From: a virus
Lineage: Duplodnaviria > Caudoviricetes
DNA: 61,883 nt
Strand: one strand, 5' to 3'
IMG/VR virus record: IMGVR_UViG_3300044726_000045
Span: 1-61,883 of that record
Part shown: one piece after another, positions 618 to 59,221 of the stretch
Layout: every line of letters starts with the position of its first letter
Position numbering within the stretch: position 1 is the first letter of the stretch
The notes under the pieces: generated by a model
Told to the model about the DNA's origin: nothing
Seen by the model: only the letters and a program-made list of their open reading frames with translations
The model's database searches: none
Made by a program: the position numbers and the translations under genes

Positions 618-1046
618 CTAGTCTCTTCGTACTTTGAAGACATTACCCGTCACGGCTTCGACGTACATATCGTTCACCGGAATCAATGTCCGGTCACTAC
701 TGTAAATCGTGCCGATGGGATTGGTCTTGAGGTCATCCTTCGGAGGTTTCGTCTTCTTCCCGGTGGGAACCAGTGTCTGCCCATCGGAGTAGTAGATGGT
801 GCCGATGGGATCGCCCATGCTGGTGAGTCTCTGCTTACTCTCACCACCACTCTCTTTGGTCCCGCCACCGCCTTTACCTGACGAGAACTTGCCGTCCTTG
901 CCATGGTTCGGGTTGAACTTCAGGACGCTTTCGAATTTGGGCAGAGCCTTTGGCTCCACGTACTGCTCGGGATGGGTGATCCGAGTCCGTGATACTAACC
1001 CGGTGATGTGCAAGGGCATGTCCGCTCCTGTTGCAACCGATTGCAA
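618..1046 (-). CDS. Small protein carrying the KFNPNH tag (start may be the ATG near 1020)
   Basis: VLKFNPNHGKDGKF; internal duplicated PIGTIY.SD..L.P repeat. Confidence 0.75.
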   Translation of the reverse strand: MQSVATGADMPLHITGLVSRTRITHPEQYVEPKALPKFESVLKFNPNHGKDGKFSSGKGGGGTKESGGESKQRLTSMGDPIGTIYYSDGQTLVPTGKKTKPPKDDLKTNPIGTIYSSDRTLIPVNDMYVEAVTGNVFKVRRD

Positions 1047-1104
1047 AAAAGTCAGACGCTAGTGTACAAGAGATACCTCGGATGCAACAACTATTTTTGC
1101 AGCC

Positions 1105-1153
1105 CTAGTAACTGCTTGGCCCGGTCAGGATGCACACCCTGCCGGGTTACTAG
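1105..1153. other. Intergenic long stem-loop (terminator or structured RNA)
   Basis: CTAGTAAC/GTTACTAG outer stem enclosing CCCGG-CAGG/CCTG-CCGGG inner stem, downstream of the MuF gene. Confidence 0.5.
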
Positions 1154-1230
1154 CTGCTGATAGGCTTTCTCTTTCGGAGCCGTAGGTTTCGCCACCACGG
1201 GCTTCATACTCACCGAAATCGGTTTCAGTT

Positions 1231-3021
1231 TCATGAGAGATACGCCTTGGCTTGCGCCATCATCGCCTCATCAGCGAGATCCAATGCCCATGTGCCCGAT
1301 GTTTCTCCCAAAATCCATTCTCCAATCGTCTTCCCCTCATAAACGAAGGGTAGCTCGACCAGTGCTGTCAACGCCGATGGTGACTTGTCCTGTAGTAACT
1401 GCCGAATCAGTAATTGGTCCGCAGGAGCCAGTGCCGCTACCGCCGCTTTCAACTCGCCTTCTTCAATCTCAGCCTGTGCGAACAGACGAATGGCATCCCA
1501 GTCAATTTCATCGGGTAGGAAACCTAGCTTAGCGAAGTAGGCCGCATTCCCTGCGACCCCTACGGCCAACTCGGTGGCTGACGACTTGACCCCGACGTTA
1601 ATCAGTTCCGTGAACAGATTCTTCAGGAACGCCAATTCCGCCTTGGGTGTCCCGGCTACTAACTCGGCTTGCGTTAGATAGAAGATACCCGTGAACGGAT
1701 CAAGGAGCGCACCCAGCTTGAACTCCACTCCTTTAGGATCTCCACCTCTCGCCTTCAGAGCAATGTTTCCATCCTCTTCAAACCGAATAGGATTCGCCCC
1801 GACACCCTGTCCCTTTGTCATCACCTCTTGCGGTGGCATACCTGTCAACTTCGCCAGCAACTCCGTGGGACTCATCCCGATGTGAGCATTCCACTGGGCC
1901 ACATTCTCTGGGGTGGCCTCGATACCCATCTCAGCCAAGTCAGCCGCTGTGACCGCTTGGAACACCTCAGCCTCGGCAGGCACGGTGGGTGTGACCTCGG
2001 TGGTCTTTCCCTTACTACTCTCGATAGATCGGCAGAGCGTGCGGCAGTGTGGATGGTACGGTGGGATGTGCAGCCCTCTGGCCACCAACTCCTCGTTACT
2101 CATCTCCATGAATCCCGCCATGGCTGCGTTCGTTTGCTTGGGCCACGGCTGCACCACACGAAGATCGTTCGGGTCTTGCACGTTCAGGGCTTCAATGACC
2201 TTCTCTCGTGCGTCAGTTACTTCGAACACCTTGCCACTGATGAAGCGGCAGAACCGGCTCGTGCGACCATCGAGCACCGCCGTCAAGCGATACCGGGCCA
2301 TGCCCACCACTTCGGCCTCTGCCGTGAATCCCCATGTCGCCAAGCGGCTGGAATTCAGGCTGGCAATCATCCGTAGCTGCTCATCCCCCTGCTTGTCGAA
2401 GGATACGAACGGTGTGACATACCGCCCCGACACAGGATCGGCTTTCCGCACTTGTTCGGTAGCGTCCCACTTGTTCGTTATACCGAATGGGATGGTTTCC
2501 TTCACGCCGGATGCGTGGCTGATCGTGATAGACGACACCGTAAAGATGCCACCCACGATCAGGTGGGCATACTTCTGTGCCGCCTCGGGTTTACAATACG
2601 CCAACGTACAGTGCGGCACGTAAACCGGGAAGTTCTTGTCCTTGAACGCCGCATAGTTCCCAATCTGCTGCTCGATGGTGTGGAAATGTGGACTGCCGAT
2701 ACGCGCCACCACCGGAACAGCACCACCGCTGTGCTCTGAGGCTGGAAACAACTGGACCTGTGTGACTTCGGCTTGGAAGGGGCGCTGAGACGCGATGAAC
2801 GCTCTCAGGCGGTCGTGCTCGTCATCCACCAGTCCATATCGCACCGTGACGTGGTTGGGGTCCACGTCCTTACCGGGGTCCATCAAGTCCTGCTCCTTGA
2901 TGGCGGCTCGGGCGATATTCAACTGGATCGACGCAGTACTGGTCGGATCAAGCTCGACCTGTGTACTGCCGTAGGAGTGTTCCTGCTTCTGAACCTCCTC
3001 TGCACTCAGTTGCACATGCAC
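1231..3021 (-). CDS. 2H phosphoesterase (Acb1/gp57B-like) fused to the MuF head-morphogenesis core and a possible C-terminal GNAT-like domain
   Basis: Two HxT motifs (HVTVRYG, HCTLAY); MuF motifs AVLDGRTSRFC and PPYHPHCR; AYFAKLGF near the C-terminus. Confidence 0.8.
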   Translation of the reverse strand: MHVQLSAEEVQKQEHSYGSTQVELDPTSTASIQLNIARAAIKEQDLMDPGKDVDPNHVTVRYGLVDDEHDRLRAFIASQRPFQAEVTQVQLFPASEHSGGAVPVVARIGSPHFHTIEQQIGNYAAFKDKNFPVYVPHCTLAYCKPEAAQKYAHLIVGGIFTVSSITISHASGVKETIPFGITNKWDATEQVRKADPVSGRYVTPFVSFDKQGDEQLRMIASLNSSRLATWGFTAEAEVVGMARYRLTAVLDGRTSRFCRFISGKVFEVTDAREKVIEALNVQDPNDLRVVQPWPKQTNAAMAGFMEMSNEELVARGLHIPPYHPHCRTLCRSIESSKGKTTEVTPTVPAEAEVFQAVTAADLAEMGIEATPENVAQWNAHIGMSPTELLAKLTGMPPQEVMTKGQGVGANPIRFEEDGNIALKARGGDPKGVEFKLGALLDPFTGIFYLTQAELVAGTPKAELAFLKNLFTELINVGVKSSATELAVGVAGNAAYFAKLGFLPDEIDWDAIRLFAQAEIEEGELKAAVAALAPADQLLIRQLLQDKSPSALTALVELPFVYEGKTIGEWILGETSGTWALDLADEAMMAQAKAYLS

Positions 3022-3024
3022 GGG

Positions 3025-3279
3025 TTATCCTTCGATGAGTTTAGCCTGCAACCGTGTCGAACGAGCGTAATTACCCACAATCGTCTCCAAGAACTTCCGA
3101 TCCTCGTTGGGGTGCTTGTCCCGAATCATCTCCAACACATTCATGGTGCCGTCCATGAGAGGAGTCACTTCCTCAACCTGCATCTTTCCCACCCCGTTGG
3201 GCCTGACTCTGGCCATCAACTCCAAATTCTTTGCCCCCGGTCGGAGCACAAACATTTCTACGTGCATCTGGTCCTCCAA
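3025..3279 (-). CDS. Small hypothetical protein downstream of the kinase-like gene
   Basis: 84 aa; GGAGG before the internal Met. Confidence 0.7.
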   Translation of the reverse strand: MEDQMHVEMFVLRPGAKNLELMARVRPNGVGKMQVEEVTPLMDGTMNVLEMIRDKHPNEDRKFLETIVGNYARSTRLQAKLIEG

Positions 3280-3313: not shown

Positions 3314-5023
3314 CTAGTATTTCATCAAATGCACTTTCTTCCACATGTCGTAGAGACCATCCGGGGTCTGAAGCGCCTCTCTGACTCGTTTCACTCGGTT
3401 CAAGAAACCTTGACGTTCCCCATCCGTCATGCTCGGGTGTCGGGCCACCAAGGCTGTCCAGTCGGCGGCATCAATGGACGCGGTAATCTCTTTTCTCAGG
3501 TTCTCCGGGGGCTTGGCATCACCTTCCATCCACTGTCCCACGGAGATCGACCGGAAGTAGAACGACCCCTCGTCATAGGCATCAGGCATGCTGTAGCCGT
3601 TATCGATGGCCACAGGATTACCCTTGTGCCCCATCACGTTGGCGTGATGACGATCCATCGATCCGATAGCGTAGTCCAGCACCGCCATTCTGGTGCCGCC
3701 GTCTTCCTCCATGTTCCCCATGTCTCCATCGGCATCGATCATCAATTGGAAGGAGCCGCCCTTCGGATTGGGTGCTTCAGAATTCTTCGGGCCACCGTCT
3801 CCACTACCTTCACTACGGTAGCCCTGACTCTTCCGCCACGCCGTGAACGACTGGATCTTGCTGTCATACATCCGGGCTTCGGTATCCGCATGACCTTCCA
3901 GCCACGAGTCATACTCATCATCCCGATACGAATCCTCGTCAAACGACCCCAACTCTTCCGCGCCTGCTTGGGCCTTCTTTTCGAGGATTTCTCGGATGCG
4001 ATCTTTCTCGCCGTCAGACAGCGGAGCCGACGTATCGACGTTGGCTTCCTTGAGCACTTCCGCCACATCAATTTCGTCAGGAATTTTGGGCCTGAATGAT
4101 GGCTTCGACCCCATGGGCAAGTTCGGGTATTCGCGGCCTGCCGCTGCGGCCCCTATGCTGGGATCTTCTTCCTTCATCTCATCCCAGACTTCCTGTACTT
4201 CCTCTGTCCGCTTCTCTACCTCTTTGACATGCTCACTCCAGAGGTTGCCCATCTCCTCGCCCACGGCATCCATGGCCTGTTCTTGGGCTTTTTCCTTGTA
4301 TTTGTCGTATTGTTCTCGGGCGTACTCCGAATCGTATCCACCCTCATCCCCTGAACTTTCTGGGATATCTACTTCGTCTGAGGCATCTTCCCGAAGGATC
4401 GTGACAGGGACTGGATTCTTCTCCGGACCAAACAGCAACTCACCAGCTTCATACGCAAAGACCTCACGCTCGGCCAGCGAGAAATTTCTGTTCGTCACAT
4501 AGTCGGTGATGCTATCGTTGGCGAAGCCACCTTCCCACGTCTCGTTGACTTCCGGCTTGAAAATCGCTTCGTCGCCGTTATCGAACCGCACGCGAAGAGA
4601 ACCGTTGACGCCTTCACCAAGAGGGTCAGACCCCGTGATACGTCCGGACTTCAACATGGACTCGACTTTGGCGTGCCCCGATACGGGTGGATTGAGTCGA
4701 GCCACGACCTCGGGATCACCGGTCAGTCGTGGGGCATTTCCAAACCCTGTGCCCGAAGGGGCATTCATGATATCGGCGTAGTCAGCAGACCCAAACCGCT
4801 CCCGCCGACGTTTCATCGGATCGGCGTCCCAACTCGCACCCCGTGACGCTTCTGGGGTACTGCCTAGTCCTGCACTGACACCCTTCACCCACTGCCCACC
4901 GGTTGGTGACCCTTTGGGACCACGGGGCTGATTGCGATTGAATTTCAGCACTTTTTCATACGACACGGGTGGTCGCAGTAGTGCCCGGATTCCTGCAATC
5001 AATTGCCGGGTGATGTGGGGCAT
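3314..5023 (-). CDS. PI3/4-kinase/HipA-like atypical kinase with N-terminal tag and acidic insertion
   Basis: GEGVNGS, AIFKP, EREVFAY, LDYAIGSMDRHHAN, IDNG motifs; tag KFNRNQPR. Confidence 0.75.
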   Translation of the reverse strand: MPHITRQLIAGIRALLRPPVSYEKVLKFNRNQPRGPKGSPTGGQWVKGVSAGLGSTPEASRGASWDADPMKRRRERFGSADYADIMNAPSGTGFGNAPRLTGDPEVVARLNPPVSGHAKVESMLKSGRITGSDPLGEGVNGSLRVRFDNGDEAIFKPEVNETWEGGFANDSITDYVTNRNFSLAEREVFAYEAGELLFGPEKNPVPVTILREDASDEVDIPESSGDEGGYDSEYAREQYDKYKEKAQEQAMDAVGEEMGNLWSEHVKEVEKRTEEVQEVWDEMKEEDPSIGAAAAGREYPNLPMGSKPSFRPKIPDEIDVAEVLKEANVDTSAPLSDGEKDRIREILEKKAQAGAEELGSFDEDSYRDDEYDSWLEGHADTEARMYDSKIQSFTAWRKSQGYRSEGSGDGGPKNSEAPNPKGGSFQLMIDADGDMGNMEEDGGTRMAVLDYAIGSMDRHHANVMGHKGNPVAIDNGYSMPDAYDEGSFYFRSISVGQWMEGDAKPPENLRKEITASIDAADWTALVARHPSMTDGERQGFLNRVKRVREALQTPDGLYDMWKKVHLMKY

Positions 5024-8200: not shown

Positions 8201-10328
8201 GAGCAATGGTATTGGACGCCGCAACCACTTCCCCCGCCGCATTCTTCGCCACATAACTCGGATGGCTCTCGGTGTGGTTGCGACTCTCATGCACGGTGAA
8301 CGTGGGTGGCTCGGTGGGCAATGGCTTCAGTAGCCCTCGCTCCTTCCGAAGCTCATCCATTCGAAGCTCTGTCAGCTTCAGTGCGATGGCATGGGTGCGT
8401 GCATAGTTAGCATCGGAGTGTGTACCTTCCTTCACCCCTGTGGTCCACCGATCCGGTTCACCGGGCTTAGTAATGACATTCAGCTTATGCTCAATCATGA
8501 ATGACAGTTTGTCCCGGTCTAGTAGATTGTTCCACTCCGCACTGATCTGCTCCGATTCTAGTTGACTGACACGCTCTGAATAACTCTCTGACTCCAACGC
8601 CTTCTCGACTGCCTGTAGATAGTTCTCGTTGTAGGCGGCATCCCAGTGCTCTTTGACGATGTTCTTCTGTTCAAGCGTCAATTCTTCACCGGACGTAAAC
8701 CGCAACGCATCCAAATCCAACTCGACCGTGCCCCCGTGATTTTTCCTACCACTGGGATACCACCCCGCTTCTTCATGATCGCCAGCCCCATAATCGATGG
8801 TGTCAGGGTCCAGCGTCTTATGTAGACTCAGGGTCAACGGGAGTGTGGAGTCCGTGTCCTTGAAGGGCTTGGCGTGATCGAGTGTGGCAATCGTATCTTC
8901 GAAGGCTTTATCGAGAACACCTTGATTATCTCTCCCCACCTCAGCCCGAACCTCATCCTCCAATCCTCTCGTATCTACATCAAGGTTTCCATATTGCTCT
9001 TCCTCCCATGCAGAACGCACGGCATCTTGGGTGCTGTCATCCACTTCGTCCCATATCTTCGGCTCGGGAGTCTGGTCATACCTAGCCGTCTTCACCGCCT
9101 GTGGCAGAAGTTTCTCGACGGCTATGATCCCGGTCTTCGCCTGCTCAGCTAAGACAGGATCAGACGTAGCTGACCCTACTCGACCTGTCGCCGCGAATTG
9201 CCCACCCTCTGACGAGCCTCCGGGTTCTCGTGGGTGTTTACTCTCATCGAACGCCGCTTCCTTCTTGGCAACTGATTGCAATTTCTTCCACAGCGGCACG
9301 TCGGAGTAGGCGCGAACTTCGTGCAGGAAAGCGTCAGAGCCTGTAGTAACTAAGGCTTCTATTGGAATTTGTGCTGATGGAATGGTCAGCGTTTGAATGT
9401 CTTCAGGCTTCAGCTTCGCTAGATGCTCCTGTCGCCCAAACAGAATGGGATTCTTGAGAATGGGTATATCTGAATGCCCACGCAACTGCAAATACGCATT
9501 CAACGTATCCTTCATCAAACTGCGACGAAGCCGTTCCTTCTCTTCGGGGGCCAAGACACCAATGTGTCCATAGGTTTTCCCTCGATCTTCATCAGCATAC
9601 TTACCTGTGGGGTCAGATACCCACGCCCCTTTCAGGCCATGGACGTTCCCTTCCCAGAAATCCTTCGCATACCCTACGGCATTATCCAGCGACCCCTTGG
9701 GTAGCCCAGCTTCCTGTTCATCTTCTCGTGCCCACTTCTCCAAAACATCAATGTCTAGCTCACCTCGGGCAATCTGAACGGCTCTCCGCAACTCCCTCTG
9801 GATGACCGTAGCGTCCTCTCTGGACGACGTAAAGGACACGCCGAGTGCTTGGCCCCCGCCTAGCCCTCCGTCCTCTCTCAGCCCTAGCAGGACGCCTGAC
9901 GCCTCCACAGCCGGGGCATTTGTGGTGACGTGAAATAGCGTCTCTGGTAGCTTCTCACGGGGTATTGGCTCACCCGTCAAGAGCCGTCCTGACGGCTTCC
10001 CTGTTTGTGGGTCCAGCCACCGCCACGACTTCTCACCCCAACTCGACTCCTGCTCCACCTCAGAAGGCCGATTGAAGATACGTGGCTCACTAGCCTCAAT
10101 GAACTTGCCATCCTTGCCGCGTGGGTGGAGTGCTGCGTCAAACTTCTTGGTGAGACCACCCAGACCTTCAGGCTTCGATGGCTCTGGCGTCGTATAGAAC
10201 GCCACCCCACCATCATCGAAGACCACCTTCGCCATGGTGGCCCGTGCGGCTGGGACAGGGAGCCAGTTGTTGTCCAGATAGACAACAGTGCCTGACCGTC
10301 CGTGAACCGTGATGGGCTGCGGGATCAT
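5184..10328 (-). CDS. 1714-aa polyvalent protein: five tag repeats separating ART-like and other modules
   Basis: FHVT/VSFT/HEV module; YRG/STT/SEHE (R-S-E ART) module; YHGTS..ILKEGL module; HDYFGH module; FNQDSVL module. Confidence 0.85.
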   Translation of the reverse strand: MIPQPITVHGRSGTVVYLDNNWLPVPAARATMAKVVFDDGGVAFYTTPEPSKPEGLGGLTKKFDAALHPRGKDGKFIEASEPRIFNRPSEVEQESSWGEKSWRWLDPQTGKPSGRLLTGEPIPREKLPETLFHVTTNAPAVEASGVLLGLREDGGLGGGQALGVSFTSSREDATVIQRELRRAVQIARGELDIDVLEKWAREDEQEAGLPKGSLDNAVGYAKDFWEGNVHGLKGAWVSDPTGKYADEDRGKTYGHIGVLAPEEKERLRRSLMKDTLNAYLQLRGHSDIPILKNPILFGRQEHLAKLKPEDIQTLTIPSAQIPIEALVTTGSDAFLHEVRAYSDVPLWKKLQSVAKKEAAFDESKHPREPGGSSEGGQFAATGRVGSATSDPVLAEQAKTGIIAVEKLLPQAVKTARYDQTPEPKIWDEVDDSTQDAVRSAWEEEQYGNLDVDTRGLEDEVRAEVGRDNQGVLDKAFEDTIATLDHAKPFKDTDSTLPLTLSLHKTLDPDTIDYGAGDHEEAGWYPSGRKNHGGTVELDLDALRFTSGEELTLEQKNIVKEHWDAAYNENYLQAVEKALESESYSERVSQLESEQISAEWNNLLDRDKLSFMIEHKLNVITKPGEPDRWTTGVKEGTHSDANYARTHAIALKLTELRMDELRKERGLLKPLPTEPPTFTVHESRNHTESHPSYVAKNAAGEVVAASNTIAQVTQNAKDWATNQMTLSDDLSSKKIISEVWESWKVKSGEGLGLSLQLAAARELGGHHRMTPGEVEYAELDAKSVGGIETLQAYVRAQWEVTQMVMKKAGEDKIDVYRGLMLPGDVVRTTPREMFTPNAKPVAPPANVKALHRKEPGREKEEYVTFDYMGEHFVVEKEVVMVRPKEDIDPGETDVAEIETTEAAVQRRVAAYHESTQGRALAFIKLPALQLKRAGAQSTTGTADVANDWGGVGDLPPDPVRVVLRIEAPPTSVLSLPVYGENNQSEHESVLLGTRDRWLWDAWRDRAPLFKNITVTTGGQMAQKADTLVIDLQAEDRGKPHWMSSVDWSTVQKFDESQHPRDGKGRFAYHGTSNELAQKILKEGLKPLSEMDRSSPVGKGFASTSEKVALSYAAMASNDSVDTITVIVFKPEASRYFQPANKHAFGPSGSWAQARRTEMSSTETVPPEMIHEVRQYQLADVVAALGPQGGKQYADWESSLEDVDPVKVVKKQEQVIYVAFLTMSEAVLKWDASKHPREPKGGPSGGQFTEGVGQGGEKAPQPHARTGSGRGGTVPAKATTGRPEAVPEVQAVADAYNAKHGLPPVQHDYVTLDEARAGTIADAYDALPLDDSGNPEVREAYKALAQEVRQQFDHIVKSGVTFTPWAKEGQPYQNSAEMVEDIRTNQHMFFYTGGEPNMFMAAHDSETGLTTNDMFRAVHDYFGHAAGGYGFGPRGEENAWRSHSQMLSASARRALTTETRGQNSWVNFGRHNYDAEGNYKKIPPQQRPFATQKTALLPESYAVMKWDESQHPRDDEGQFTRVAMTSQRPVYDPEHKENKVVFQHMGEFKKALSALPGVSRVSVKPGVGGWDGGSESMWQVYYRGNGEARKLVARTAKAFNQDSVLILKKCGGQDCQPAVELSFEGGVDTTTREYIHGILVKNGITGWTWMKRDGKTLLRMVSVPQWGGVAEKHQKDTVTISQKLRSAGLENHRRVHKVRVEVMEREGENSYDRFIG

Positions 10329-12415
10329 GACACCAGTTCCTTAATCCGCGCCTGCCGTGCTCGGTGCCACGTATACATCCCGCTCGTCATCTTCACCCAT
10401 GGTGAATCGAGACTCGGCGTGTGCTCTTCATACGCCCACGACTTCGGGTGGCGTAAATACCGGGTTACCTCTGCAATGGTTTCGTTGATCGCCGTGTCAT
10501 ACGATCCGTTACGACTCTTTACCGCTTCCGGGGTCCAGTACGACTTCGCGTAGGCACTATGCCCGTTCTCCTTGACCATCTCGGCTGAGATGCCGGAGAA
10601 GATATTCGCAGGGCCACCCGACAATCCAGACAGCGCCATGGATGCCGGGAACTCCTTGGCCATCTCTTCGTAGTATTCCGGTTTCAGTTTCCGGTAGGAA
10701 TGAATCACCACATCCCCAGCCACACCACCAAACCGCTCGTGATACCACGCCGTATGATTCTGGCCATCAGGAGTGACGGCCTTCGCCAGATATCGCTGGA
10801 ACTCCCGGTCGGCCACACTCTTCATCGTGTGCCAGACGAAATGGGATAGCTCATGGCTCACGATGCCCCGCACTATCGACGCATCACCATAACTCAAGTC
10901 ACGCACATTGATTTCAATCTGCTCGTTAGATGGTTGATAGTGACCGGCCTCGGTGAACTGCTTATCACCCACCATGAATGACGGCGGGTCTTTGTCCACC
11001 ACGTTGATGTGCCACGGACTCACGCCCATCTTCTCGGCTTCGCTGTTCGCCAGATTCGTCACCACCTCGATCTTCATGAGGGGTGTCTGGGCCTTCAGTG
11101 CGGCATCAGCATCCAGTTGCTTCATCTCAGCGGCTTTGAGTGCCGCCTTGGTCTTTAGATACTCGGGATCACTGAAGACTCTCTCTTCCACGGCGGCAAT
11201 GTTGGCCGTGTCATCAGGATTGAATGGTTTGGTTTCTTCCACAAACCGATCCCACGCACGATTGGCATGGGGTAGATGGGCTTCTTTCGCCGCAAAGAAT
11301 TCATCATCAGCGGCCATTACTGCGGCATTCAAGTCAGACCACTTCTTCCGCTCGGGACCACCACCCTCCATGTCATCTGGCTCTTCACCCGGCTGACGGA
11401 GCGTGCCTGACCGTGCAAACTGCCCTTCCTTGTCTCTGGGATGCTTACGCTCATCCCATGCCGCCTTCGTATTTAGCTTGTGAAACGCACGCTCCGACCA
11501 ATTCTTGAGTTGTGATGGCTCGACGGGCGTCTGAAGCTGACCACTCTGATAGGAGTCAAAATCATTCTCACCCTGCGGCGACATATCGATTCGAATAACC
11601 TGAGCTTTGTATTCGATGTTCCAGTCGTCCGCGATGATGCGTGCCTGTTGTATGGTCAGTGGAGCTTTAATCTCGACACCACCATACTGACCCGCTGAAT
11701 ACCTCACCACACCTGCCGCCATCACGGCCCCAAGATTTGGTGGGAAGCCTTGGCCTTCCTGTGTCAGTGCCTCAAACACCACGTCGGAGTGTTCTCGCAC
11801 CTGACTGGCGAGTCGAGTGCCATCAGGCAACAAGAGCTTCGTCTTCCTCGGCTCATCGGTGATGGTGACGGGCTGGTAGTCCTCATGCTCATGCTTGTTC
11901 AATCCCTTGGCTCTATCCAATAGACGGGACACGATACGTGCAGAGCGCGTCCACTGGCCTTCCTTATCTCTGGGCTGTGCTGGGTCAAACGCCACCTTCA
12001 GACTAGCGGCTTTAGTCTTGGCTTCATCCTCTGCAATTGATTGCAATGCCTCGGCCTGAATCTGTGCGGTGGCATTGAATTCCAGATACTGGAGAATGTT
12101 ATTGGTGGTTTGCTTCAGGAAGGTATCGAAGCTGCCGACGCCTACAAAACTTGGCTTCCCCTTGGCCACCATATTGGCCCCGAACACACCAAGGGAAAGG
12201 AGCATGTAGGTGATCCATTCCCTGTTTTCTGTCCCCACTTCCGCCATGTCAAGGTCAGTGACCAGACGGCGTGCTTCATCCCATTTATGGTCCAGACAGG
12301 CGTGGGTAATGGCTGCGTAGGTGGGGGCTGACTGAATACGCCATGACCTGAGAAGACGGCGTTGGAACGCCTTCTCCAGAGCGATATACGTTCTCAGGTC
12401 TACAGTCTTCGCCAC
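10325..12415 (-). CDS. Portal-adjacent protein: probable MuF N-terminal part, two tags and a zincin-like metallopeptidase
   Basis: Canonical position after the portal; helical N-terminal ~140 aa; HELSH...ETIAE; ATGA overlap with the next gene. Confidence 0.75.
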   Translation of the reverse strand: MAKTVDLRTYIALEKAFQRRLLRSWRIQSAPTYAAITHACLDHKWDEARRLVTDLDMAEVGTENREWITYMLLSLGVFGANMVAKGKPSFVGVGSFDTFLKQTTNNILQYLEFNATAQIQAEALQSIAEDEAKTKAASLKVAFDPAQPRDKEGQWTRSARIVSRLLDRAKGLNKHEHEDYQPVTITDEPRKTKLLLPDGTRLASQVREHSDVVFEALTQEGQGFPPNLGAVMAAGVVRYSAGQYGGVEIKAPLTIQQARIIADDWNIEYKAQVIRIDMSPQGENDFDSYQSGQLQTPVEPSQLKNWSERAFHKLNTKAAWDERKHPRDKEGQFARSGTLRQPGEEPDDMEGGGPERKKWSDLNAAVMAADDEFFAAKEAHLPHANRAWDRFVEETKPFNPDDTANIAAVEERVFSDPEYLKTKAALKAAEMKQLDADAALKAQTPLMKIEVVTNLANSEAEKMGVSPWHINVVDKDPPSFMVGDKQFTEAGHYQPSNEQIEINVRDLSYGDASIVRGIVSHELSHFVWHTMKSVADREFQRYLAKAVTPDGQNHTAWYHERFGGVAGDVVIHSYRKLKPEYYEEMAKEFPASMALSGLSGGPANIFSGISAEMVKENGHSAYAKSYWTPEAVKSRNGSYDTAINETIAEVTRYLRHPKSWAYEEHTPSLDSPWVKMTSGMYTWHRARQARIKELVS

Positions 12416-14308: not shown

Positions 14309-14384
14309 AGGCCACCTGACAAATCATGCCTTGCAATTAAAGAAGATTGTTCAGTCTACGGATTTTTGCACTCAATTGCAATGA

Positions 14385-17382: not shown

Positions 17383-17574
17383 TCATCTCCTTTGCAATCG
17401 ATTGCCAGACTCCATCTGCCCGATGACTTGCTGGACCTGACCCTTGAGCTTCTTGATTTGGAGCTTCGCCATCTTCCGATAACCGGAATGCGGTGGGATA
17501 CCTTCCAGCACACAGTCTTCCAGCTTCTCGATGGTCTTCCACATTTCTTGCCACTCGGCTCTGGTCAATGACAT
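17383..17574 (-). CDS. Hypothetical protein
   Basis: Coupled 63-aa helical ORF. Confidence 0.55.
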   Translation of the reverse strand: MSLTRAEWQEMWKTIEKLEDCVLEGIPPHSGYRKMAKLQIKKLKGQVQQVIGQMESGNRLQRR

Positions 17575-19435: not shown

Positions 19436-21807
19436 GGTGACCTCTTGAACTTTTTCACCTCTCCCCAGTTCGGCCCTATCTTAGCATCGGCTGCAAACTT
19501 CAACTGTGGATTCCACCCCACCTTTTCGAAGGGTAGGTTCTCCATCTGGTCTATCTGCCGGATAACAATCTCCTCGACCAAATCCTCGGGCACGTAGTTC
19601 AGAATGGAATCATGACAGGCTCCAAAGCATGGTGCGATAGCTGCGAGTCCAGACTGATGTTCCAATGCGATGGTCCACAAGACCATATCAGTCAGGCATC
19701 CTTGCACCGGACTATTGATCGCCTGCCGTTCCGCCTTCGCGGCCACCTCACGGTTGGGTGACTTAATCAATGGCAGATGGCGAATCCTGCCAAGCGGAGT
19801 GCGGACTTGTTTGTGCTGTCTCGCCTGATCCACATACACTCGATGGTACACCAGCAACTTCGGATACTTCTTGAAGAACGTCTCTCGGAACTCGTGCGCC
19901 TCATCCCACGTCAACGTCACGCCGTAATTGGACCGGGCGTAGTTCACGAACCCATCTTCCTTCATACCAAAGACCAAACCAAAGTTACCAGCCTTGCCAA
20001 GCTGCCGGGTCTCTTCGAACGTGTGCGTGTCCGTCTGCTCCAGCGCCATCAGCGCCTCATACGTGAAGCCAGCAAATGGTGCGGCGGTGTCGGCGTGAAT
20101 GTCCTTACCCGATTTGAACACCGCAATCATGTTGTCTTCGTGCGCGATGCACGCGATGACTCGTAGTTCCCCCTGCCCGTAGTCCCGTTCCACCACCACG
20201 TAGCCCGGTGGGGCGGGGAAACAGCGCCTGATACGCTGCGCCCACTTCGTGTGCTTGGGCACCGTCTGGAAGGCCGGATCTTTACAGGACAACCGACCCG
20301 TCTTGGCCCCGCCTTCATCCTCGTCTCTATTACCCACGAACAGATAATACGTGGGATGAAATCGACCATCAGATCGGAGATGGCTCAGGAAGCCTTTGAC
20401 GTAGGTGTTGTACGTCTTCATCACGCCGCTGTCTTCTCGGATGAGGCTGATAAACTCCTTGGCCTTCGGGTCATCGGAGAACATCTCCAGATGCTCCATG
20501 GCCGTACTCGGGCGTTTGATACCGTCCTTGTCGTCCTTGGCGGTATACATCTTGGGCTTCAAGTTCAATCCCATGGGGGAGAACATGAAATCCGTGAGCA
20601 TGGCGGCTTTGGTGAGGTTCATTCCACCGGGTTTCGATGGGTCACCATGCTTCACATAGATGCGGCCACCCATGATCTTGACGGCTTCTTTCACGAGTCG
20701 TGCGTGCTCTGTCTCCAGATCGAACTTCAACTGCTCGTAAGCGTCCTTATCGATCAGGATGCCACCCTGCTCCACCTGTTCGAAGGCTCTCGATGCTGGG
20801 TGCAGAATGTTCACGTAGAAGCTGGTCAGCCTCTGGTCTCTCAGCAACTCCTTCTTCATGGCGTCAGCCACCTGAAGGTCGGCATCCACGTCGCCACCCG
20901 CATAAGGGAGTAACTGGTCTGGAGGTACTTGGTCCATCCGGCCCTTGTCCACGGTCCTATCGAACACGTCTGAATACCCGGCCAGCGATGGCACGTAAAT
21001 CTTGGTATGCACATCGAGCGCGTTGCTGCGATTCTCATCGAGCAAGCTGCCCACGATGGTGGTGTCGAACTTGAAGTTCGTGCAACTGATTGCAGCACGC
21101 TTCCACAGCCAGTGCAGGTCGTACTTGAAGTTGGCTCCCTTCATCTTCACCATGTCCGACCGCAACAGGAATTCAAGCTGCTCCCGCAAGAACGGATCTT
21201 GAAGTCGTTCTGTCTCATGCTGCCGGGACGTGAACCGGATGACCGATGCCTTCCCAGCCTCACAGGTCGCCTGTATGGTCACGATGTAGGCTCCGGGGTA
21301 GCTCAGGGTCGGTAGGGCGTAAGGGTCCAGTCCCAGCGTCTCCAAGTCCTTGGTGACGTCCACCGGCTCCCCAGACGCCTTGTAGCGGGTCTCAATAGCC
21401 TCACAGAGACCGGAGAAGTCATGGACATAGGTGTAAGCCCCATAGATCGGGGTCCACTTCCCTGTGAGACAGAATCGAATGGCGAGGGTCACATCGGTCA
21501 ACAGGTCCACGTAGTACCCGTGGTCGATATCCCCAATCTCAGGGCTGTAGGACACCAGCACCGGCACGCTGCCCAGCATCACGGGCAGAGTCCGGTAGGA
21601 CGTGGTGGTCCTATTCTTGGCGAGTAGCTTGTTCTCTTGGAGCTTCTTGAGGGAGTCTGACCCCAGCGCGAGAATGACCGTGGTGTCTGATGGAACGCTG
21701 TAGTCCGAGACGACGGTGATGGGTAACTCTTGGACGGATCGTAGGATGGGTGACAGAACCGCCAGTGTCTTGGCCGATGGTGTCTTGGTCCAGATGGTCA
21801 ACAGCAT
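19432..21807 (-). CDS. polA: Family A DNA polymerase with 3'-5' exonuclease and degenerate UDG-like N-terminus
   Basis: Exo DLET, NFKYD, YAGGD; TGRLS; motif A DYGQGELR; motif B KAGNFGLVFG; motif C HDS. Confidence 0.95.
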   Translation of the reverse strand: MLLTIWTKTPSAKTLAVLSPILRSVQELPITVVSDYSVPSDTTVILALGSDSLKKLQENKLLAKNRTTTSYRTLPVMLGSVPVLVSYSPEIGDIDHGYYVDLLTDVTLAIRFCLTGKWTPIYGAYTYVHDFSGLCEAIETRYKASGEPVDVTKDLETLGLDPYALPTLSYPGAYIVTIQATCEAGKASVIRFTSRQHETERLQDPFLREQLEFLLRSDMVKMKGANFKYDLHWLWKRAAISCTNFKFDTTIVGSLLDENRSNALDVHTKIYVPSLAGYSDVFDRTVDKGRMDQVPPDQLLPYAGGDVDADLQVADAMKKELLRDQRLTSFYVNILHPASRAFEQVEQGGILIDKDAYEQLKFDLETEHARLVKEAVKIMGGRIYVKHGDPSKPGGMNLTKAAMLTDFMFSPMGLNLKPKMYTAKDDKDGIKRPSTAMEHLEMFSDDPKAKEFISLIREDSGVMKTYNTYVKGFLSHLRSDGRFHPTYYLFVGNRDEDEGGAKTGRLSCKDPAFQTVPKHTKWAQRIRRCFPAPPGYVVVERDYGQGELRVIACIAHEDNMIAVFKSGKDIHADTAAPFAGFTYEALMALEQTDTHTFEETRQLGKAGNFGLVFGMKEDGFVNYARSNYGVTLTWDEAHEFRETFFKKYPKLLVYHRVYVDQARQHKQVRTPLGRIRHLPLIKSPNREVAAKAERQAINSPVQGCLTDMVLWTIALEHQSGLAAIAPCFGACHDSILNYVPEDLVEEIVIRQIDQMENLPFEKVGWNPQLKFAADAKIGPNWGEVKKFKRSP

Positions 21808-23931: not shown

Positions 23932-24633
23932 TTACCGCTTTTTGGCCTTCCACAAGCTCCGAGCCGAAGGCATCGGGCTGAACTGCTTGGTCTTCGCCGT
24001 CACCCCTTCGGGTGGAATCTGCTTCACCTTGGACTCAGGCAACTGCTGGTACTGAGTCGAGGACGATGCCGGTCCCAGTGAATGCCACTTGCCATTCCCA
24101 TTGCCGCCGCTCTTCGTCCCGGTCACCTCAGTCACGCCGTAGTGCTTCATCAAGAACTGCACTTGAGCCTTGGACTCCACCGCCTTCTTGCAGTAGTGCT
24201 TCCGGACCCACTGGATCGCGTCCTTCTTCCCCGTCAGTTCCGCCACGATGGCTGAGATCACGATCCCCGTGCGACCATGACCACCCACGCATCCGACATG
24301 CACCGTCTTGCCGTCCTGCAATTGAGTGCAGAGCCACGTCACCATCTTCTTGAACCGTGACGTGTTCACCGGGGCATTCATGTCCTGAATGCTGTAGTGG
24401 ATCTCCACCACCCCGTTCGGCTCCCATGGGTCCGACGACTTGCCGCTGGTGCTGCCGCTCTGCAATGACACATACACGTCGGCCTTCTTGATGGCTGGAT
24501 AGCTTGCACTCCCACCCACCAGCGTCCCCTTGCCCAGCTTCAGGGCTGGGTGCGACTCGTAGCACCGGATCGGCATCTCGGTGCCGCTGAAAGCGTCCTT
24601 GCTACTCTTACTGAACGTGTCCCACAGGGCCAT
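23932..24633 (-). CDS. Cys-dependent dual-specificity/tyrosine phosphatase
   Basis: IQDM acid loop, VHVGCVGGHGRTG (Cx5R), AVES..Q. Confidence 0.9.
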   Translation of the reverse strand: MALWDTFSKSSKDAFSGTEMPIRCYESHPALKLGKGTLVGGSASYPAIKKADVYVSLQSGSTSGKSSDPWEPNGVVEIHYSIQDMNAPVNTSRFKKMVTWLCTQLQDGKTVHVGCVGGHGRTGIVISAIVAELTGKKDAIQWVRKHYCKKAVESKAQVQFLMKHYGVTEVTGTKSGGNGNGKWHSLGPASSSTQYQQLPESKVKQIPPEGVTAKTKQFSPMPSARSLWKAKKR

Positions 24634-39098: not shown

Positions 39099-39311
39099 TC
39101 ACCGTCTACCGACATGCCACCACTTACAGTACGGACAAGGATATGTATTTAGTCGATCTTCATCTTTGACGCCTGACGACCGCTTTAACGCCCGTAAATG
39201 GGCTTTGGCTGCGCCTTCAGAACGCCATTTCTGCTTCCGCCAACACCGTGGAAGAAACACTCCATCCAGACGCGCAATTTCACCGAGCTTCATGTCATCC
39301 CTCCATGGCAA
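39099..39311 (-). CDS. Small Zn-binding protein
   Basis: C..K......A........Y.CP.C..WHVG. Confidence 0.7.
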   Translation of the reverse strand: MPWRDDMKLGEIARLDGVFLPRCWRKQKWRSEGAAKAHLRALKRSSGVKDEDRLNTYPCPYCKWWHVGRR

Positions 39312-39467
39312 TCAATTGCAATTTCTACTGGTGGTCTTCGCTGCGAGTCGCCCCCGTTCGGTAAACGTGATCGTTCATCCACGTGTCAGACATGTAGTCC
39401 GACGCATCGAGCAACGGCTCACCCCACCATCGATCCTTGACCCACCGCTTGAGCCGACGCCACCACA

Positions 39468-43959: not shown

Positions 43960-44313
43960 CTACCACGACGCCTTCGCCGGATTGAGTGCTGCCCACACAT
44001 CCAGCGGGTCCGTGTCGTTCGTGAACGTCGCCACCACATGCTGGTTCTTGCCCTTGACCACACGCACCATCAACAGCGCATGAGCCGCATGCGAATACTT
44101 CACCTTGTAGACGTTCCCATCACCGAGCCGAATCCGTGCGTGCTCAGGTCCGAGATGGATCAACGCCTTGGTACCGAGCGCCTGAAGTTCCATCAAGACG
44201 TGTGGCATGATACGGCCCACATACCCCCACACACCACCGTTGACCTTCAGGTCCGAAGGCCGATGCTTCTCCACCAGTGCCTGCACAAACTGTGAATCCA
44301 ATTGCAATTTCAT
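43960..44313 (-). CDS. Hypothetical protein
   Basis: 117 aa; promoter 44333..44361 (TTGACA-17-TAGCAT) and AAGGAGG RBS. Confidence 0.7.
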   Translation of the reverse strand: MKLQLDSQFVQALVEKHRPSDLKVNGGVWGYVGRIMPHVLMELQALGTKALIHLGPEHARIRLGDGNVYKVKYSHAAHALLMVRVVKGKNQHVVATFTNDTDPLDVWAALNPAKASW

Positions 44314-44512: not shown

Positions 44513-44917
44513 TCAGTCTTCGTGCCTGTTATTGAATGCTTTCACCGCCGACGCCGGGAACCCACCCATGGTGCCCAACGACGTGTTCAGGCCGGTCACT
44601 CGCGTGAACACTTCCTGAAGCTGATCGTTGTAGATGCTCTTCCGCTCCGCGACGTGCTTGACGTTGACACCACGCAGCCGCAGGAACGTCAGGTCATAGG
44701 TGTCTTCTGCATTCAATTGCACCTTGACGTAGTTGATCCCGTCCGTGGTGCGACCCCCGGCACCCGGCAACCTGAAGGACAGCGACCGCTCGTCGCCAAG
44801 GAAGTTCTTGGCCCCGGTCATGACGATGAACCTACGCCCACCAAGCTGCGCCAAAATTGTCTCTGCTACCTGCATATTTGCCATTGGCTCCTCCATGAGC
44901 GAAGACCAGTCTACCAC
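44513..44917 (-). CDS. Phage hypothetical protein (start probably near 44884-44896)
   Basis: ILAQLGGRRFIVMTGAK...DTYDL.F...Y.DQLQEVF...TGL. Confidence 0.8.
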   Translation of the reverse strand: MVDWSSLMEEPMANMQVAETILAQLGGRRFIVMTGAKNFLGDERSLSFRLPGAGGRTTDGINYVKVQLNAEDTYDLTFLRLRGVNVKHVAERKSIYNDQLQEVFTRVTGLNTSLGTMGGFPASAVKAFNNRHED

Positions 44918-44936: not shown

Positions 44937-45425
44937 CTGTGCAACCGATTGCACAGAATACAACGGCCCGGTCGTCAGCAACTTACTCGCCGCCGCAATG
45001 TTCTCCTCGGACACCCCCTTCTCGGGCGTCGTCTTCACGAACCACTCACGAACCCCGTCCATGCTGAACCGACCCTCATGGTTGTCGTCCAGAATCGCCA
45101 GATGCACCGGTTCCCCCATGCCCTTGAGCCAGTTCTGAATCTCCTCACCACGGACCCAGCCGTTCTCGGTGACCCCGAGCACACGACGGGTGGGAATGCC
45201 CCCATACACCTGTAGGAACCGCCGTAGCTCCCCCAGCGTGTAATTGTGCCGCCAGTCTGAACTCACGACCACCGAAGCGTTCAGACGCTCCACCATGCCA
45301 CCCACGCGCAGGGCCAACCGCCGCTCGATCTGTGGCTCAACGGGTGAACTGAGGTAATACCCCTGCTTGCTCACCCGATTGATCACCCCGTCGAAATCCA
45401 AAAACACTATCCGTCTCGCGCTCAT
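44922..45425 (-). CDS. HAD-superfamily phosphatase (Swiss-army-knife RNA-repair-like)
   Basis: FLDFDGVIN, VVSSDWR, RGEEI..WL, ILDD. Confidence 0.85.
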   Translation of the reverse strand: MSARRIVFLDFDGVINRVSKQGYYLSSPVEPQIERRLALRVGGMVERLNASVVVSSDWRHNYTLGELRRFLQVYGGIPTRRVLGVTENGWVRGEEIQNWLKGMGEPVHLAILDDNHEGRFSMDGVREWFVKTTPEKGVSEENIAAASKLLTTGPLYSVQSVAQLTNA

Positions 45426-47091: not shown

Positions 47092-47147
47092 GACCAGACC
47101 ATTGTCTCACACCAACCGGCGTTTGTCAAATCCCTGCAATCAAGTGC

Positions 47148-47178
47148 AGGACGGATGGCCCGTAGGCCACCCGCCCCT
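47148..47178 (-). terminator. Stem-loop with cUACGg tetraloop after 47189..47578
   Basis: GGGGCGGGTGGCC-TACG-GGCCATCCGTCC; no U-tract. Confidence 0.55.
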
Positions 47179-49669: not shown

Positions 49670-50369
49670 TCACCGCTTCACCTTTTTCTTCGGCTGAATA
49701 CGCAGACCTTTCACCGTGCAATACTGGTGCTCGTAAGGCTTATCTGCCTTCAACTGACCGAGTTTCCAGTCAGCATCCAGCTTGCTGGCGTAGGCCACGT
49801 CACCGACGATGCCTTCCGGCCCGAACTCCTCCGGGGCGTCATCGAAGATCACCCACACGCGATTCTGCACCAGCGTAATCATAGCCCTGTGACTCCTCGC
49901 TTCGCCTGAGTCGCTTCTTGCACGGCTCGTTCCAACGAACCATACACCGCGAACATCATGTTCACGAGCACCCGGCACCCGTCACACACCAGATGGCGGG
50001 ACTTGCCGTCCGTCATCTCCGAGACATGGTTATCCGTGCCCTGACACACGAAACACTGCTTCACCACCAACGTCGTCATCTGACTTCCTTCTCCCTCACC
50101 CAATCGGTCTTTCCTTCGCTCTCGATGGCGTTGTCCAGCGCATCATCAGCCGTCTTCAACTGCGCCTGCACTGCACCCACCCGCTGGGTCAGCAACTGCT
50201 TGTTCAATTCCGCAGCCTTCTCCACTTCGTCCGGTCGCACCGACAGGTTTTTCACCCCGGCCAACGTTGCCAAGCCTTTCATGATCAACCGCCACTCAGC
50301 GTCTGTTACCTTCAGCACCACGTTCTGCGTTACAACTACCTCGGCCATGTCACACTCCTTGTGCTGCAA
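49670..50369 (-). CDS. Three small hypothetical ORFs (49670..49978, 49879..50103, 50076..50369; true starts internal)
   Basis: Coupled ORFs with RBSs. Confidence 0.55.
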
Positions 50370-50430
50370 CCAATTGCAATTTATAATTCAACGGCACGGA
50401 ACTTGAATTACCTTCGACTGGGAGTACCCC

Positions 50431-51511: not shown

Positions 51512-51584
51512 GAGCTAAATTCACTGCCACTACTCTACCAAACCATGGAGTGATTTGTCAAGTAGTGGCAGTTGATTGCAATTT

Positions 51585-54116: not shown

Positions 54117-54126
54117 CAGGTCACCT

Positions 54127-57785: not shown

Positions 57786-57789
57786 GTTC

Positions 57790-58404
57790 CTACCGTGCTT
57801 CCACGATACGTGGAATTTTACGAGCGTCGAAAATCTGATCAACCATGGTAATCGCTTCGAACACTTGCTTCTGGATACTCGTGCCATCGGGCAGAGTGGT
57901 AGTCTGTGCCGCTCCTCGTACCGTCGTCACACCCACCGGGCCTTTGAACTCATCCAGCCCCAGATCAAACCTGACCTTCTGAAGATCCAGCAACATTTTT
58001 CGGTAGCTCTCCAGCACATCGTTCATGATGGGCATGGTGGTATTCCACTTCTCTTCCTTCTCCACCAGTTTCATCACACGATCTCGCTGAATCTGTGCCA
58101 TTTCCTCCAGTCGAGCAATCACCGGAGTGGACACATTTTCCAGCAACCTCACCTGTGGGGTCGCCCCAGCCGCAATCAGTTTGGCAACTTCTGGCCCGTA
58201 AGCTCCCTCTGCGGCGTGAATCCGTAGCCGGGTCAACTGCCGGGTCAACGTCTTCTCCGACATTTTCTGAAACAGCCCCCACCCGTCCGGTGGTGCTTGC
58301 TGAAGAATACGAGCCACGCTCATCGCGGGTTTGCCCCGCATCAGCATGTTCAGGATCTTGCTGAACTTCTCTTCCCCCAGTTCTTGCAAGCGTTCGAAGG
58401 CCAT
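57790..58404 (-). CDS. terS: Probable terminase small subunit
   Basis: Helical 204-aa ORF directly upstream of terL with an HTH-like N-terminus. Confidence 0.6.
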   Translation of the reverse strand: MAFERLQELGEEKFSKILNMLMRGKPAMSVARILQQAPPDGWGLFQKMSEKTLTRQLTRLRIHAAEGAYGPEVAKLIAAGATPQVRLLENVSTPVIARLEEMAQIQRDRVMKLVEKEEKWNTTMPIMNDVLESYRKMLLDLQKVRFDLGLDEFKGPVGVTTVRGAAQTTTLPDGTSIQKQVFEAITMVDQIFDARKIPRIVEAR

Positions 58405-58525
58405 ACTTACCTCTTACTCTTCAACACCCGGTCTAGTTGACTCCCACACTTCGGACAGGTCTTCGTGTAGCCTCTGACGCTACACCGGCACGTCCAACAC
58501 CACCACACTTCCATGACCTGTCGCC

Positions 58526-58927
58526 TTAGTTCTGGCCACCGAGGCAATTCCGACCCACTTCCAACATCACTTTAGGGCCAGCAAACGATGCCTTCAAGGC
58601 GGTGCCAGCGAGTCTCAGCAGGGGTCGTTCACTACCCATCAAGGTCTCCACCAGTGGTTCCACCGTGTTCACGATAAACGACGCTACGGGTCTGGCGTTC
58701 TTGCACTCCAACGAAGTCATCAAGGCATCGAGTTCGCCTTGAGCCTTGGTCAACGGACTGTCCTTCACCAGTGGTAACACCCCGCACGTGTGCGTAATGT
58801 CAGGCGTCGGTTCATCCATGCCCACAATGCGAAGGGCATTGCACTCGTGGGCGGTAGGAACCACGATCTGCTTGTCGCCGCACCCACCAGATAGCACTGC
58901 GATGAACACCAACATGGCTCGTGGCAT
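58526..58927 (-). CDS. Predicted lipoprotein
   Basis: Hydrophobic leader ending LSGG-C. Confidence 0.55.
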   Translation of the reverse strand: MPRAMLVFIAVLSGGCGDKQIVVPTAHECNALRIVGMDEPTPDITHTCGVLPLVKDSPLTKAQGELDALMTSLECKNARPVASFIVNTVEPLVETLMGSERPLLRLAGTALKASFAGPKVMLEVGRNCLGGQN

Positions 58928-58936
58928 CCATCTATT

Positions 58937-59221
58937 TTACCGCTGCTTCTTTGCATCCTCCAACAGATTCCGGACCCACGCATCGTAGGCTTCATCGATG
59001 CTCACTTCACCGATAGCTTGGCTCAAGCTGTAGGCGTCATCGGATGCGTTCAAGAGAACCTTGTTCACTTTCTCCTGAAACGTCTGCCGCGCCGTCGCCA
59101 CCATCGTTCTGGCTTCTTCCAGCGCGGTCTCTCGCGTGGTCTTCGGTTCGTGACTCGGCGTACCCGGTTGCTTCGGTGCTGACTTTTGCATCCCGCACTC
59201 CTTTGCTGCAATCAGTTGCAA
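58937..59221 (-). CDS. Hypothetical protein (start probably MQKSA)
   Basis: AAGGAG before the internal Met. Confidence 0.6.
   Translation of the reverse strand: MQLIAAKECGMQKSAPKQPGTPSHEPKTTRETALEEARTMVATARQTFQEKVNKVLLNASDDAYSLSQAIGEVSIDEAYDAWVRNLLEDAKKQR

Follow-up and report, generated by a model that had tools for sequence, protein, structure and literature searches.

RacA of Bacillus subtilis has a MerR-like winged-helix domain, recognises a short palindrome scattered over the chromosome and has a tethering or anchoring role. On the IncP plasmid RK2, the palindromic OB operators of KorB lie across the replicon, some near promoters and others far from them, and KorB, which combines a ParB-family DNA-binding domain with a ParB N-terminal domain, is a cytidine triphosphate (CTP)-dependent sliding clamp that works with KorA (PMC11790492, available part). 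Dispersed sites are also described in the accessible sections of PMC4351075. There, the stoperators of Cluster A phages are asymmetric and oriented with transcription, and the Cluster O siphovirus Corndog has a 17-bp dyad repeat in more than 30 copies, about a third of them in coding regions and most not at promoters, for which the authors predict a dimeric binder. Here we describe the palindrome TGCAA-N4-TTGCA in a 61,883-base sequence from a tailed phage (Caudoviricetes; IMG/VR record IMGVR_UViG_3300044726_000045). This stretch, called the window below, is the entire record; it is linear, is rated 54% complete and holds about half a genome.

Results

An over-represented and evenly spaced palindrome

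The initial annotation had placed eight exact copies of the palindrome at positions 1032, 12032, 21081, 27788, 34693, 44940, 50365 and 59207, and we found all eight there. In 100 dinucleotide-preserving shuffles the mean was 0.05 and the largest count 1, so no shuffle reached the observed number. Its 11 copies with a single mismatch are all among the 12 matches with one arm mismatch that we found; the twelfth, at 9277, overlaps the copy at 9267 and its centre is not YYRR. The YYRR centre, said to be invariant, was present in 8/8 exact and 11/12 one-mismatch copies. The three two-mismatch copies (37701, 44293 and 51567) were located as well, but this class may partly be chance, since five YYRR-centred copies stand against 1.57 expected (30 shuffles). 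In the same comparison there were 8 exact copies versus 0.0 and 11 one-mismatch copies versus 0.17. The classes with no or one mismatch are real, and both are far over the shuffle level in all five genomes of the family. These are the window (G000) and four complete relatives of about 112-120 kb (G001-G004), of which G002 is the closest. A query with the DNA polymerase found 16 related loci, and a megablast search with 9.5 kb of the window found no near-identical cultured relative in the phage collection.

The sites are more evenly spaced than chance, with about one per 3 kb. For copies with at most one mismatch, the coefficient of variation (CV) of the spacing in the window was 0.57 (P=0.007 under uniform placement), while random placement gives about 0.97. 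Nine related genomes spanned 0.45-0.65; among them, the relatives gave 0.45 (G002), 0.51 (G003) and 0.65 (G001), the genomes G005, G008 and G009 gave 0.60-0.64, and the cultured phages DLP5 and DLP3 gave 0.50 and 0.45. In most genomes the shortest gap was longer and the longest gap shorter than in random placement. When the same test was applied to the comparators, the Corndog repeats had a CV of 0.94 (P=0.45) and L5 stoperator-like sites a CV of 1.17. The even spacing is new here and absent from both published comparators.

About half of the copies had been assigned to gene starts or -35 boxes and the others to gene interiors. By our crude calls of open reading frames (ORFs), 8/19 sites with at most one mismatch are at gene starts or intergenic and 11/19 lie more than 30 nt inside an ORF. 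Three relatives have 22/34, 20/33 and 15/24 sites this deep inside ORFs. We shuffled synonymous codons within each ORF, leaving the proteins unchanged (300 shuffles per genome), and the enrichment, whose loss would have refuted the initial annotation by its own standard, persisted. The window has 11 intragenic sites versus a mean of 0.63 (largest 3), and the three relatives have 22 versus 3.1, 20 versus 1.05 and 15 versus 1.8 (largest 7, 6 and 5). Inside genes, the sites are thus selected at the nucleotide level. The frame xTG-CAA-YYR-RTT-GCA dominates the intragenic sites of these relatives (17/22, 15/20 and 12/15), while the window frames are split 4/4/3. We read the dominant frame as the cheapest way of writing the word into a protein. 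A scarcity of A before and of T after the site was considered as part of the recognition sequence and was ascribed instead to this frame, xTG ... GCA N.

The positions are also conserved. G002 aligns at 12 of the 19 window sites and retains the site at ten of them, with an arm identity to the window of 111/120 versus 981/1306 in the 60-nt flanks on each side. At orthologous sites in genomes with a protein identity of about 57-60%, the arms are retained and the centre shifts within YYRR even at an amino-acid cost. More distant relatives retain part of the sites and have lost the rest.

The word is shared by phages of distant hosts

Five other IMG/VR records carry 46, 34, 26, 52 and 28 sites with at most one mismatch. 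Scanning IMG/VR for a single exact 14-mer brought up further clades, with genomes of 95-98 kb and 28-52 sites, whose core proteins are about 25-60% identical to those of the window family. All nine cultured phages that we checked carry the word. Sites with at most one mismatch number 36 in Stenotrophomonas phage DLP5, 34 in DLP3, 35 in Summit and 33 in Vibrio phage PG28, and exact copies number 9 in Rhodobacter phage RcZahn, 3 in Vibrio phage SIO-2, 17 in Rhizobium phage RHph_TM16, 16 in Aeromonas phage HJ05 and 47 in Rhizobium phage L338C. The hosts belong to the Gamma- and Alphaproteobacteria, and the phage records that bear the word have 55-62% G+C. Across these phages the arms are constant, and the inner letters vary by phage lineage and not by host group.

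A symmetric site, probably read on double-stranded DNA

The matrix from 110 sites in four genomes is symmetric under reverse complement. T:C at position 6 is 91:19 and A:G at position 9 is 86:24; position 7 (C:T 63:47) mirrors position 8 (G:A 64:46), and no flanking position exceeds 0.25 bit. The half-site is (T/g)GCA(A/c)Y with a near-invariant GCA core, and the centre is a pyrimidine-purine step. The single arm mismatches (n=86) fall mostly on the outermost (47) and innermost (36) arm positions and on the core only three times. Only 2 of 42 double mismatches are compensatory, the folding energy of the 14-mer as RNA is -2.5 kcal/mol, and more than half of all sites have an arm mismatch. The symmetric matrix, the uninformative flanks, the few compensatory changes and the weak hairpin favour a double-stranded site that would be read by a symmetric dimer.

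A genome-wide site for a dimeric DNA-binding protein is what the initial annotation had proposed. The symmetry, the missing covariation, the nucleotide-level selection and the retained positions agree with that part of the proposal, and its comparison with stoperators did not hold.

Sites at gene starts and promoters

The coordinates below are those of the 14-nt sites, without strand. Read in the coding direction, five of the window sites stop 1-5 nt short of a ribosome-binding site. The exact copy at 1032..1045 is directly 5' of the Shine-Dalgarno sequence and ATG of the minus-strand ORF ending at 618, and occurs at the same place in G001 with no mismatch. Two more exact copies precede a Shine-Dalgarno sequence and ATG, at 50365..50378 (ORF 50076-50369; retained in G002 with another YYRR centre) and at 59207..59220 (ORF 58937-59221). 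One-mismatch copies are directly 5' of the Shine-Dalgarno sequence of ORF 16915-17379 (17393..17406; retained in G002) and of the Shine-Dalgarno sequence and ATG of ORF 39099-39311 (39307..39320). Another, at 14367..14380, is intergenic, 5' of the portal gene 12425-14308, and is retained in G002. At the 5' ends of ORFs are the one-mismatch copies at 3001..3014 (ORF 1231-3021, with 2H/LigT and MuF-like parts) and 4994..5007 (ORF 3314-5023; retained in G002 and G001). The two-mismatch copy at 44293..44306, at the start of ORF 43960-44313, may be chance.

Three window sites lie 3-5 nt 5' of a consensus TTGACA box. The exact copy at 44940..44953, retained in G002, is 3 nt 5' of a TTGACA ... TAGACT promoter-like site on the coding strand. 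The one-mismatch copy at 47135..47148 is 5 nt 5' of a TTGACA box and just 3' of a hairpin, and the two-mismatch copy at 51567..51580 is 5 nt 5' of a TTGACA ... TAGAGT promoter-like site. In four genomes, 17/82 promoter-like sites have a copy within 60 nt, with gaps of 1-13 nt. Where a promoter is near, the copy is 5' of the -35 box and not in the spacer between -35 and -10. In our reading, the sites are put into the few non-coding gaps where these are available, which would explain the neighbouring promoters and ribosome-binding sites without a link to initiation. A sigma-54 promoter was considered by eye and set aside; the GG-to-GC distance is one base short of the consensus.

The coding (minus) strand of the window has 15 near-consensus TTGACAAA ... 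TAnnnT promoter-like sites, for example downstream of 44940, 47135 and 51567. They suggest that much of the genome may be transcribed by the host sigma-70 polymerase. By eye, the variant of the palindrome whose arm position 5 is C and whose centre is TTGA (once TTAA) often comes after terminator-like hairpins or T-runs; examples are 47135 in the window, 49999 in G002 and 389, 72239 and 100835 in G003.

Sites within genes

Exact copies within genes differ in how far they are kept. The one at 12032..12045 (ORF 10325-12415) is retained in G002 without mismatch, in G001 and G003 with one and in G004 with two. The copy at 21081..21094 in the DNA polymerase A gene (19432-21822) is retained in G002 and lost in G001, G003 and G004, the one at 27788..27801 in the PPDK-like kinase gene (26964-28973) is retained in G002 with one mismatch, and the one at 34693..34706 (ORF 34607-35089) is retained there with none. 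Among the one-mismatch copies, the one at 24317..24330 in the phosphatase-like ORF 23932-24633 keeps the identical mismatch in G001, G002, G003 and G004. Those at 29590..29603 (ORF 29336-30451) and 32992..33005 (ORF 32499-33908) are absent at this place in relatives, and the one at 44708..44721 (ORF 44513-44917) is absent at this place in G002 and G001. The two-mismatch copy at 37701..37714 in the collagen-like tail fibre gene may be chance.

The one-mismatch copy at 9267..9280 lies within a 1714-amino-acid ORF (5184-10328). Some intragenic sites in large head-region proteins have, by eye, a recurring peptide, (I/L)LK(W/F/Y)D...PR or FDESKHPR, encoded 30-50 nt downstream. The loci are the 9267 region of the window, G001 79391, 105521 and 107568, G002 40406 and G003 62620 (each in its own coordinates). 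This hints at a repeated protein module that may travel with the site.

Gene content of the window

The plausible genes all lie on the minus strand, as 94 ORFs that cover 94% of the window. We recognised a large terminase, a portal, a collagen-like tail fibre, a family A DNA polymerase, an ATP-dependent ligase and a Dam-type methyltransferase, together with a PPDK-like kinase between two tyrosine-phosphatase-like proteins, a HAD domain and a 2H phosphoesterase. A kinase/phosphatase/repair-like gene set (23932-28973, 44922-45569, 41563-41910, 42916-43959, 1231-3021 and 3314-5023) includes the PPDK-like kinase (PHROG 'kinase', 3e-159), two PTP-SAK-type phosphatases, a HAD_SAK_2 domain, a RapZ C-terminal domain, the ATP-dependent ligase, a PI3/PI4-kinase-like protein and a 2H/LigT domain fused to a MuF-like head protein. 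The annotation of DLP5 shows the same cluster, which could be an RNA-repair or DNA-modification module. The 650-amino-acid ORF at 30451-32403 has a sub-threshold ADP-ribosyltransferase match (21.3 bits versus a cut-off of 23.4).

Among the relatives, G002 has glycosyltransferase and methyltransferase genes within its structural module (52558-56112; L023:12558-16112). Comparable genes lie between portal and protease in Cluster O phages, according to the available part of PMC4351075. G001 has two further over-represented palindromes, GGACC-N4-GGTCC (n=11) and GGTCC-N4-GGACC (n=9), versus 0.23 expected for each.

Candidate readers

The initial annotation had identified no binder in the window, and we agree, as none of the window proteins qualifies. 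The 107-amino-acid product of ORF 26378-26701 is a homologue of the DLP5 'transcriptional repressor' (31% identity, E 2e-16), and was rejected since it has only a CxxC...CxxC zinc-ribbon-like tail and no DNA-binding family. The products of 60851-61174 and 60087-60416 were rejected as well, with weak FUR-like and ribbon-helix-helix matches under the curated cut-offs. Two candidates, c303 and c150, are encoded by relatives in the half of the genome that is missing from the window.

The first candidate, c303 (G002 97463-98251, 262 amino acids), has 315 homologues, no Pfam family and a presence in 50 cultured phage records; the DLP5 homologue is DLP05_067. Its predicted model is all-helical, without strands, and has a mean predicted local distance difference test score (pLDDT) of 72.5. 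In VIA-align it matched the ParB DNA-binding domain on parS (6s6h, Z 7.7, 116 residues aligned, 5.8 A), Spo0J (1vz0, Z 7.0, 102, 3.5 A), the KorB DNA-binding domain on its operator (1r71, Z 6.9, 106, 3.7 A) and KorB (8qa8, Z 6.3). We regard this predicted resemblance to ParB/KorB DNA-binding domains as suggestive only. In 8/14 genomes examined, a site lies 64-131 nt 5' of the c303 gene, and in G005 and G008 a site lies 8 nt 5' of its -35 box. An autoregulated binder would show such a pattern.

The second candidate, c150 (G002 91054-91506, 150 amino acids), is a MerR-type winged-helix protein. Its profile matched, among solved structures, the DNA-binding domain of CarA (5.4e-5), CarH (1.6e-3) and RacA (8.8e-3). 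PF13411 (MerR_1) is present in most of its 77 homologues, at 24.1 bits in G005 and 27.7 bits in DLP5 versus a cut-off of 21.6; G002 itself, at 19.1, is below the cut-off. Modelled with a pLDDT of 88, c150 has MerR-family proteins or RacA in all of its best fold rows; its homologue in DLP5 is DLP05_060. The gene order helicase-c150-c124-RecA is retained, and a weak positional analogue is found in G009 (hhalign probability 22%). The DLP3 authors list the homologue as HTH_MerR-SF (PMC7326821, available part).

Other proteins of the relatives were put aside. The neighbour c124 (G002 91510-91884) was rejected for want of a structure or family match, and c272 (G002 88893-89711), with H-X13-C-X11-C-X2-C, resembles by eye the single-strand binding protein of T4 gene 32 and was set aside. 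A canonical ParB was rejected as the reader, since three complete genomes of the family lack PF02195.

Discussion

A proposed lattice of docking sites

The copies are, in our estimate, probably docking sites that would form a protein lattice on the phage chromosome, with a candidate reader encoded by the phage. A symmetric dimer would dock on the double-stranded sites and, at a density of about one per 3 kb, every extended region of the chromosome would hold a site. A site would go into an intergenic gap if one is at hand, beside a promoter or ribosome-binding site, and would otherwise be written into the reading frame, mostly in the dominant frame. The reader would be phage-encoded, since the same word occurs in phages of Stenotrophomonas, Vibrio, Aeromonas, Rhizobium and Rhodobacter. 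Sites that are evenly spaced, disregard gene boundaries and are conserved across hosts suggest a role that would need coverage of the whole chromosome, such as organising, tethering, marking or silencing it, and not the control of particular promoters. As a guess, we rank organising, tethering or marking first, lysogenic silencing second and landmarks for enzymes third; a partition or condensation role is possible.

Within this reading, c303 would be a tentative choice of reader for the lattice, and some other protein an equally tentative one. We consider c150 a rather unlikely reader. A more far-reaching version of the docking lattice, to which we give less credence than to the lattice itself, would be a system of addresses over the whole chromosome, shared by proteobacterial phages of a large and old clade. 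In it, a ParB/KorB-like protein without the CTP clamp domain would dock every 2-4 kb and mark the DNA as self, given that host genomes are expected to contain the word hardly ever; it would organise, tether or protect the chromosome, and the spacing itself would be selected. Such a viral chromatin signpost would have no described counterpart in any phage.

Several observations weigh against the docking lattice and its candidate readers. The spacing test took uniform placement as its null and counted copies with no more than one mismatch, and for the window by itself neither the shortest nor the longest gap reaches significance. The fold matches of c303 are middling for an all-helical model; their top row belongs to a Rubisco factor that is unrelated (Z 9.2), and the program itself warns that Z values of this size occur often. 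Foldseek gave c303 no match with E below 0.3. No site lies 5' of the c303 gene in the window's own family (G001-G004). The profile search for c150 found none in G009 and RcZahn, and was weak in others. The ParB N-terminal domain PF02195 has no match at E 0.01 or better in the complete genomes G001-G003, so that a CTP sliding clamp of the KorB type is unsupported in the window's family; G005 has the domain (48 bits) and G009 a weak match to it, and c303 has no ParB_N match. As c303 and c150 both belong to the gene core of a single clade, finding them together with the motif reflects shared ancestry and is not independent evidence.

Other explanations of the sites

The sites could instead silence a temperate phage by the logic of stoperators, with a repressor bound every few kb that blocks RNA polymerase and keeps a plasmid prophage quiet. 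The same reader would be compatible with this. PMC7326821 and PMC5834331 call DLP5 and DLP3 temperate and DLP5 also a phagemid, and genes on one strand with many strong promoter-like sites would suit such a mechanism. Roadblocks need not be at promoters, and their even spacing would limit the length of read-through. However, stoperators are asymmetric and oriented while the sites here are symmetric, the L5 stoperator-like sites are unevenly spaced, and no integrase, partition ATPase or classical repressor was recognised in the window or G002, so we regard silencing as unlikely, if still the strongest of the rivals. A conserved host regulator or nucleoid protein that the phage borrows or titrates would be a good deal less probable. 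Palindromes of 14 bp with a central pyrimidine-purine step do resemble the operators of several bacterial regulator families, and no phage reader is proven, but the arms are the same across phages of Gamma- and Alphaproteobacteria and the inner letters follow the phage lineage. About as improbable is the idea of landmarks for an enzyme acting on DNA, either for programmed nicks or breaks that seed recombination-dependent replication or as loading or exclusion points for DNA modification. The clade encodes RecA, RuvC, a Cas4-like exonuclease, a second resolvase and HNH nucleases, the even spacing suits a processive or distance-limited enzyme, and DLP3 DNA was resistant to all 15 restriction enzymes tried and is thus modified (PMC7326821, available part). 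Yet neither a nuclease nor a modification enzyme is linked to the motif, and a double-strand cut at each palindrome would fragment the chromosome.

An RNA or single-stranded DNA hairpin with a 5-bp stem and a 4-nt loop might act in processing, stability, translation or at the replication fork. As all genes are on one strand, every site is transcribed, five window sites are directly 5' of a ribosome-binding site, and arm mismatches occur at both ends of the would-be stem. We rejected this on the missing covariation, the loop letters that mirror each other as on double-stranded DNA and the weak folding energy, with arm mismatches in over half of the sites; several sites are moreover 5' of promoters, and we give the hairpin very little chance. 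Least probable of all is a promoter or activator site for middle or late transcription, be it for a phage RNA polymerase, an N4-kind hairpin promoter or a MerR-type spacer site. Some sites are just 5' of genes or beside sigma-70-like promoters, and relatives encode a MerR-type protein. The flanks hold no information and thus no fixed -35, -10 or start elements, though, and only about a fifth of the promoter-like sites have a copy nearby, on which we rejected this reading. The gap to the -35 box also varies, the motif has no direction though the genes all run one way, most sites are deep in genes, and neither a phage RNA polymerase nor a sigma factor was recognised by Pfam in the window or G002.

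Significance

If the docking lattice is real, a large phage clade carries an unrecognised cis-acting code that constrains codon choice in essential genes and is kept for a genome-wide purpose, and codon optimisation or genome refactoring would erase its sites. Members of the clade, Stenotrophomonas phages DLP3 and DLP5 and Vibrio phages, have been proposed for therapy or biocontrol in the available parts of the literature. The even spacing points to a distance-limited process on DNA. The system is directly testable, as members are in culture, the site is 14 bp long and two candidate readers can be named, and the word can be used as a signature for sorting metagenomic contigs of the clade. It also bears on a question raised by Cluster O, namely what dispersed dyad repeats away from promoters do.

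Comparison with known systems

Literature searches, including searches with exact 14-mers, found no published description of the word or the lattice (supplements not covered). Term look-ups in the DLP3 paper (PMC7326821) and in the Rhodobacter phage paper gave no hit, and PMC5217627 gives unrelated terminator motifs only.

In L5, too, a single short site, that of the repressor, recurs dozens of times over the phage genome at a distance from promoters. The likeness to stoperators that was initially drawn nevertheless fails, since the sites here are symmetric, not oriented to transcription, mostly intragenic and evenly spaced. The stoperator pattern gave 21 matches on one strand of L5 and 5 on the other, besides the high CV of its spacing, and stoperators lie in short intergenic gaps, whereas 11 of the 19 window sites are well inside ORFs.

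KorB and its OB operators share with our sites a palindromic operator dispersed over the whole replicon. They differ in the ParB N-terminal domain, absent from G001-G003, and c303 is all-helical without a Pfam match. Unlike the sites of ParABS systems, those of the lattice are spread evenly and not clustered; no ParA was found by Pfam, and ParB_N is absent in G001-G003. RacA (5i41, 5i44) is a weak match of c150 (profile E 8.8e-3; Foldseek E 0.017-0.077; TM score 0.71-0.73 on the RacA chain), but HiNmlR, CueR and CarH match c150 equally or better, and we know of no polar-anchor partner for a phage. The sites also differ from those of the MerR family, with no promoter elements at a fixed distance around them and no placement in an over-long spacer between -35 and -10.

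The nearest published counterpart is Corndog's repeat. It is unrelated in sequence, phage lineage and host phylum, and its 37 copies crowd unevenly to one end of the genome (CV 0.94), whereas our sites were evenly spaced in all genomes tested. Still, the repeat of the Cluster O type is like our palindrome in kind, though not a homologous family: both are dyad-symmetric, occur in tens of copies inside and between genes, and are not tied to promoters.

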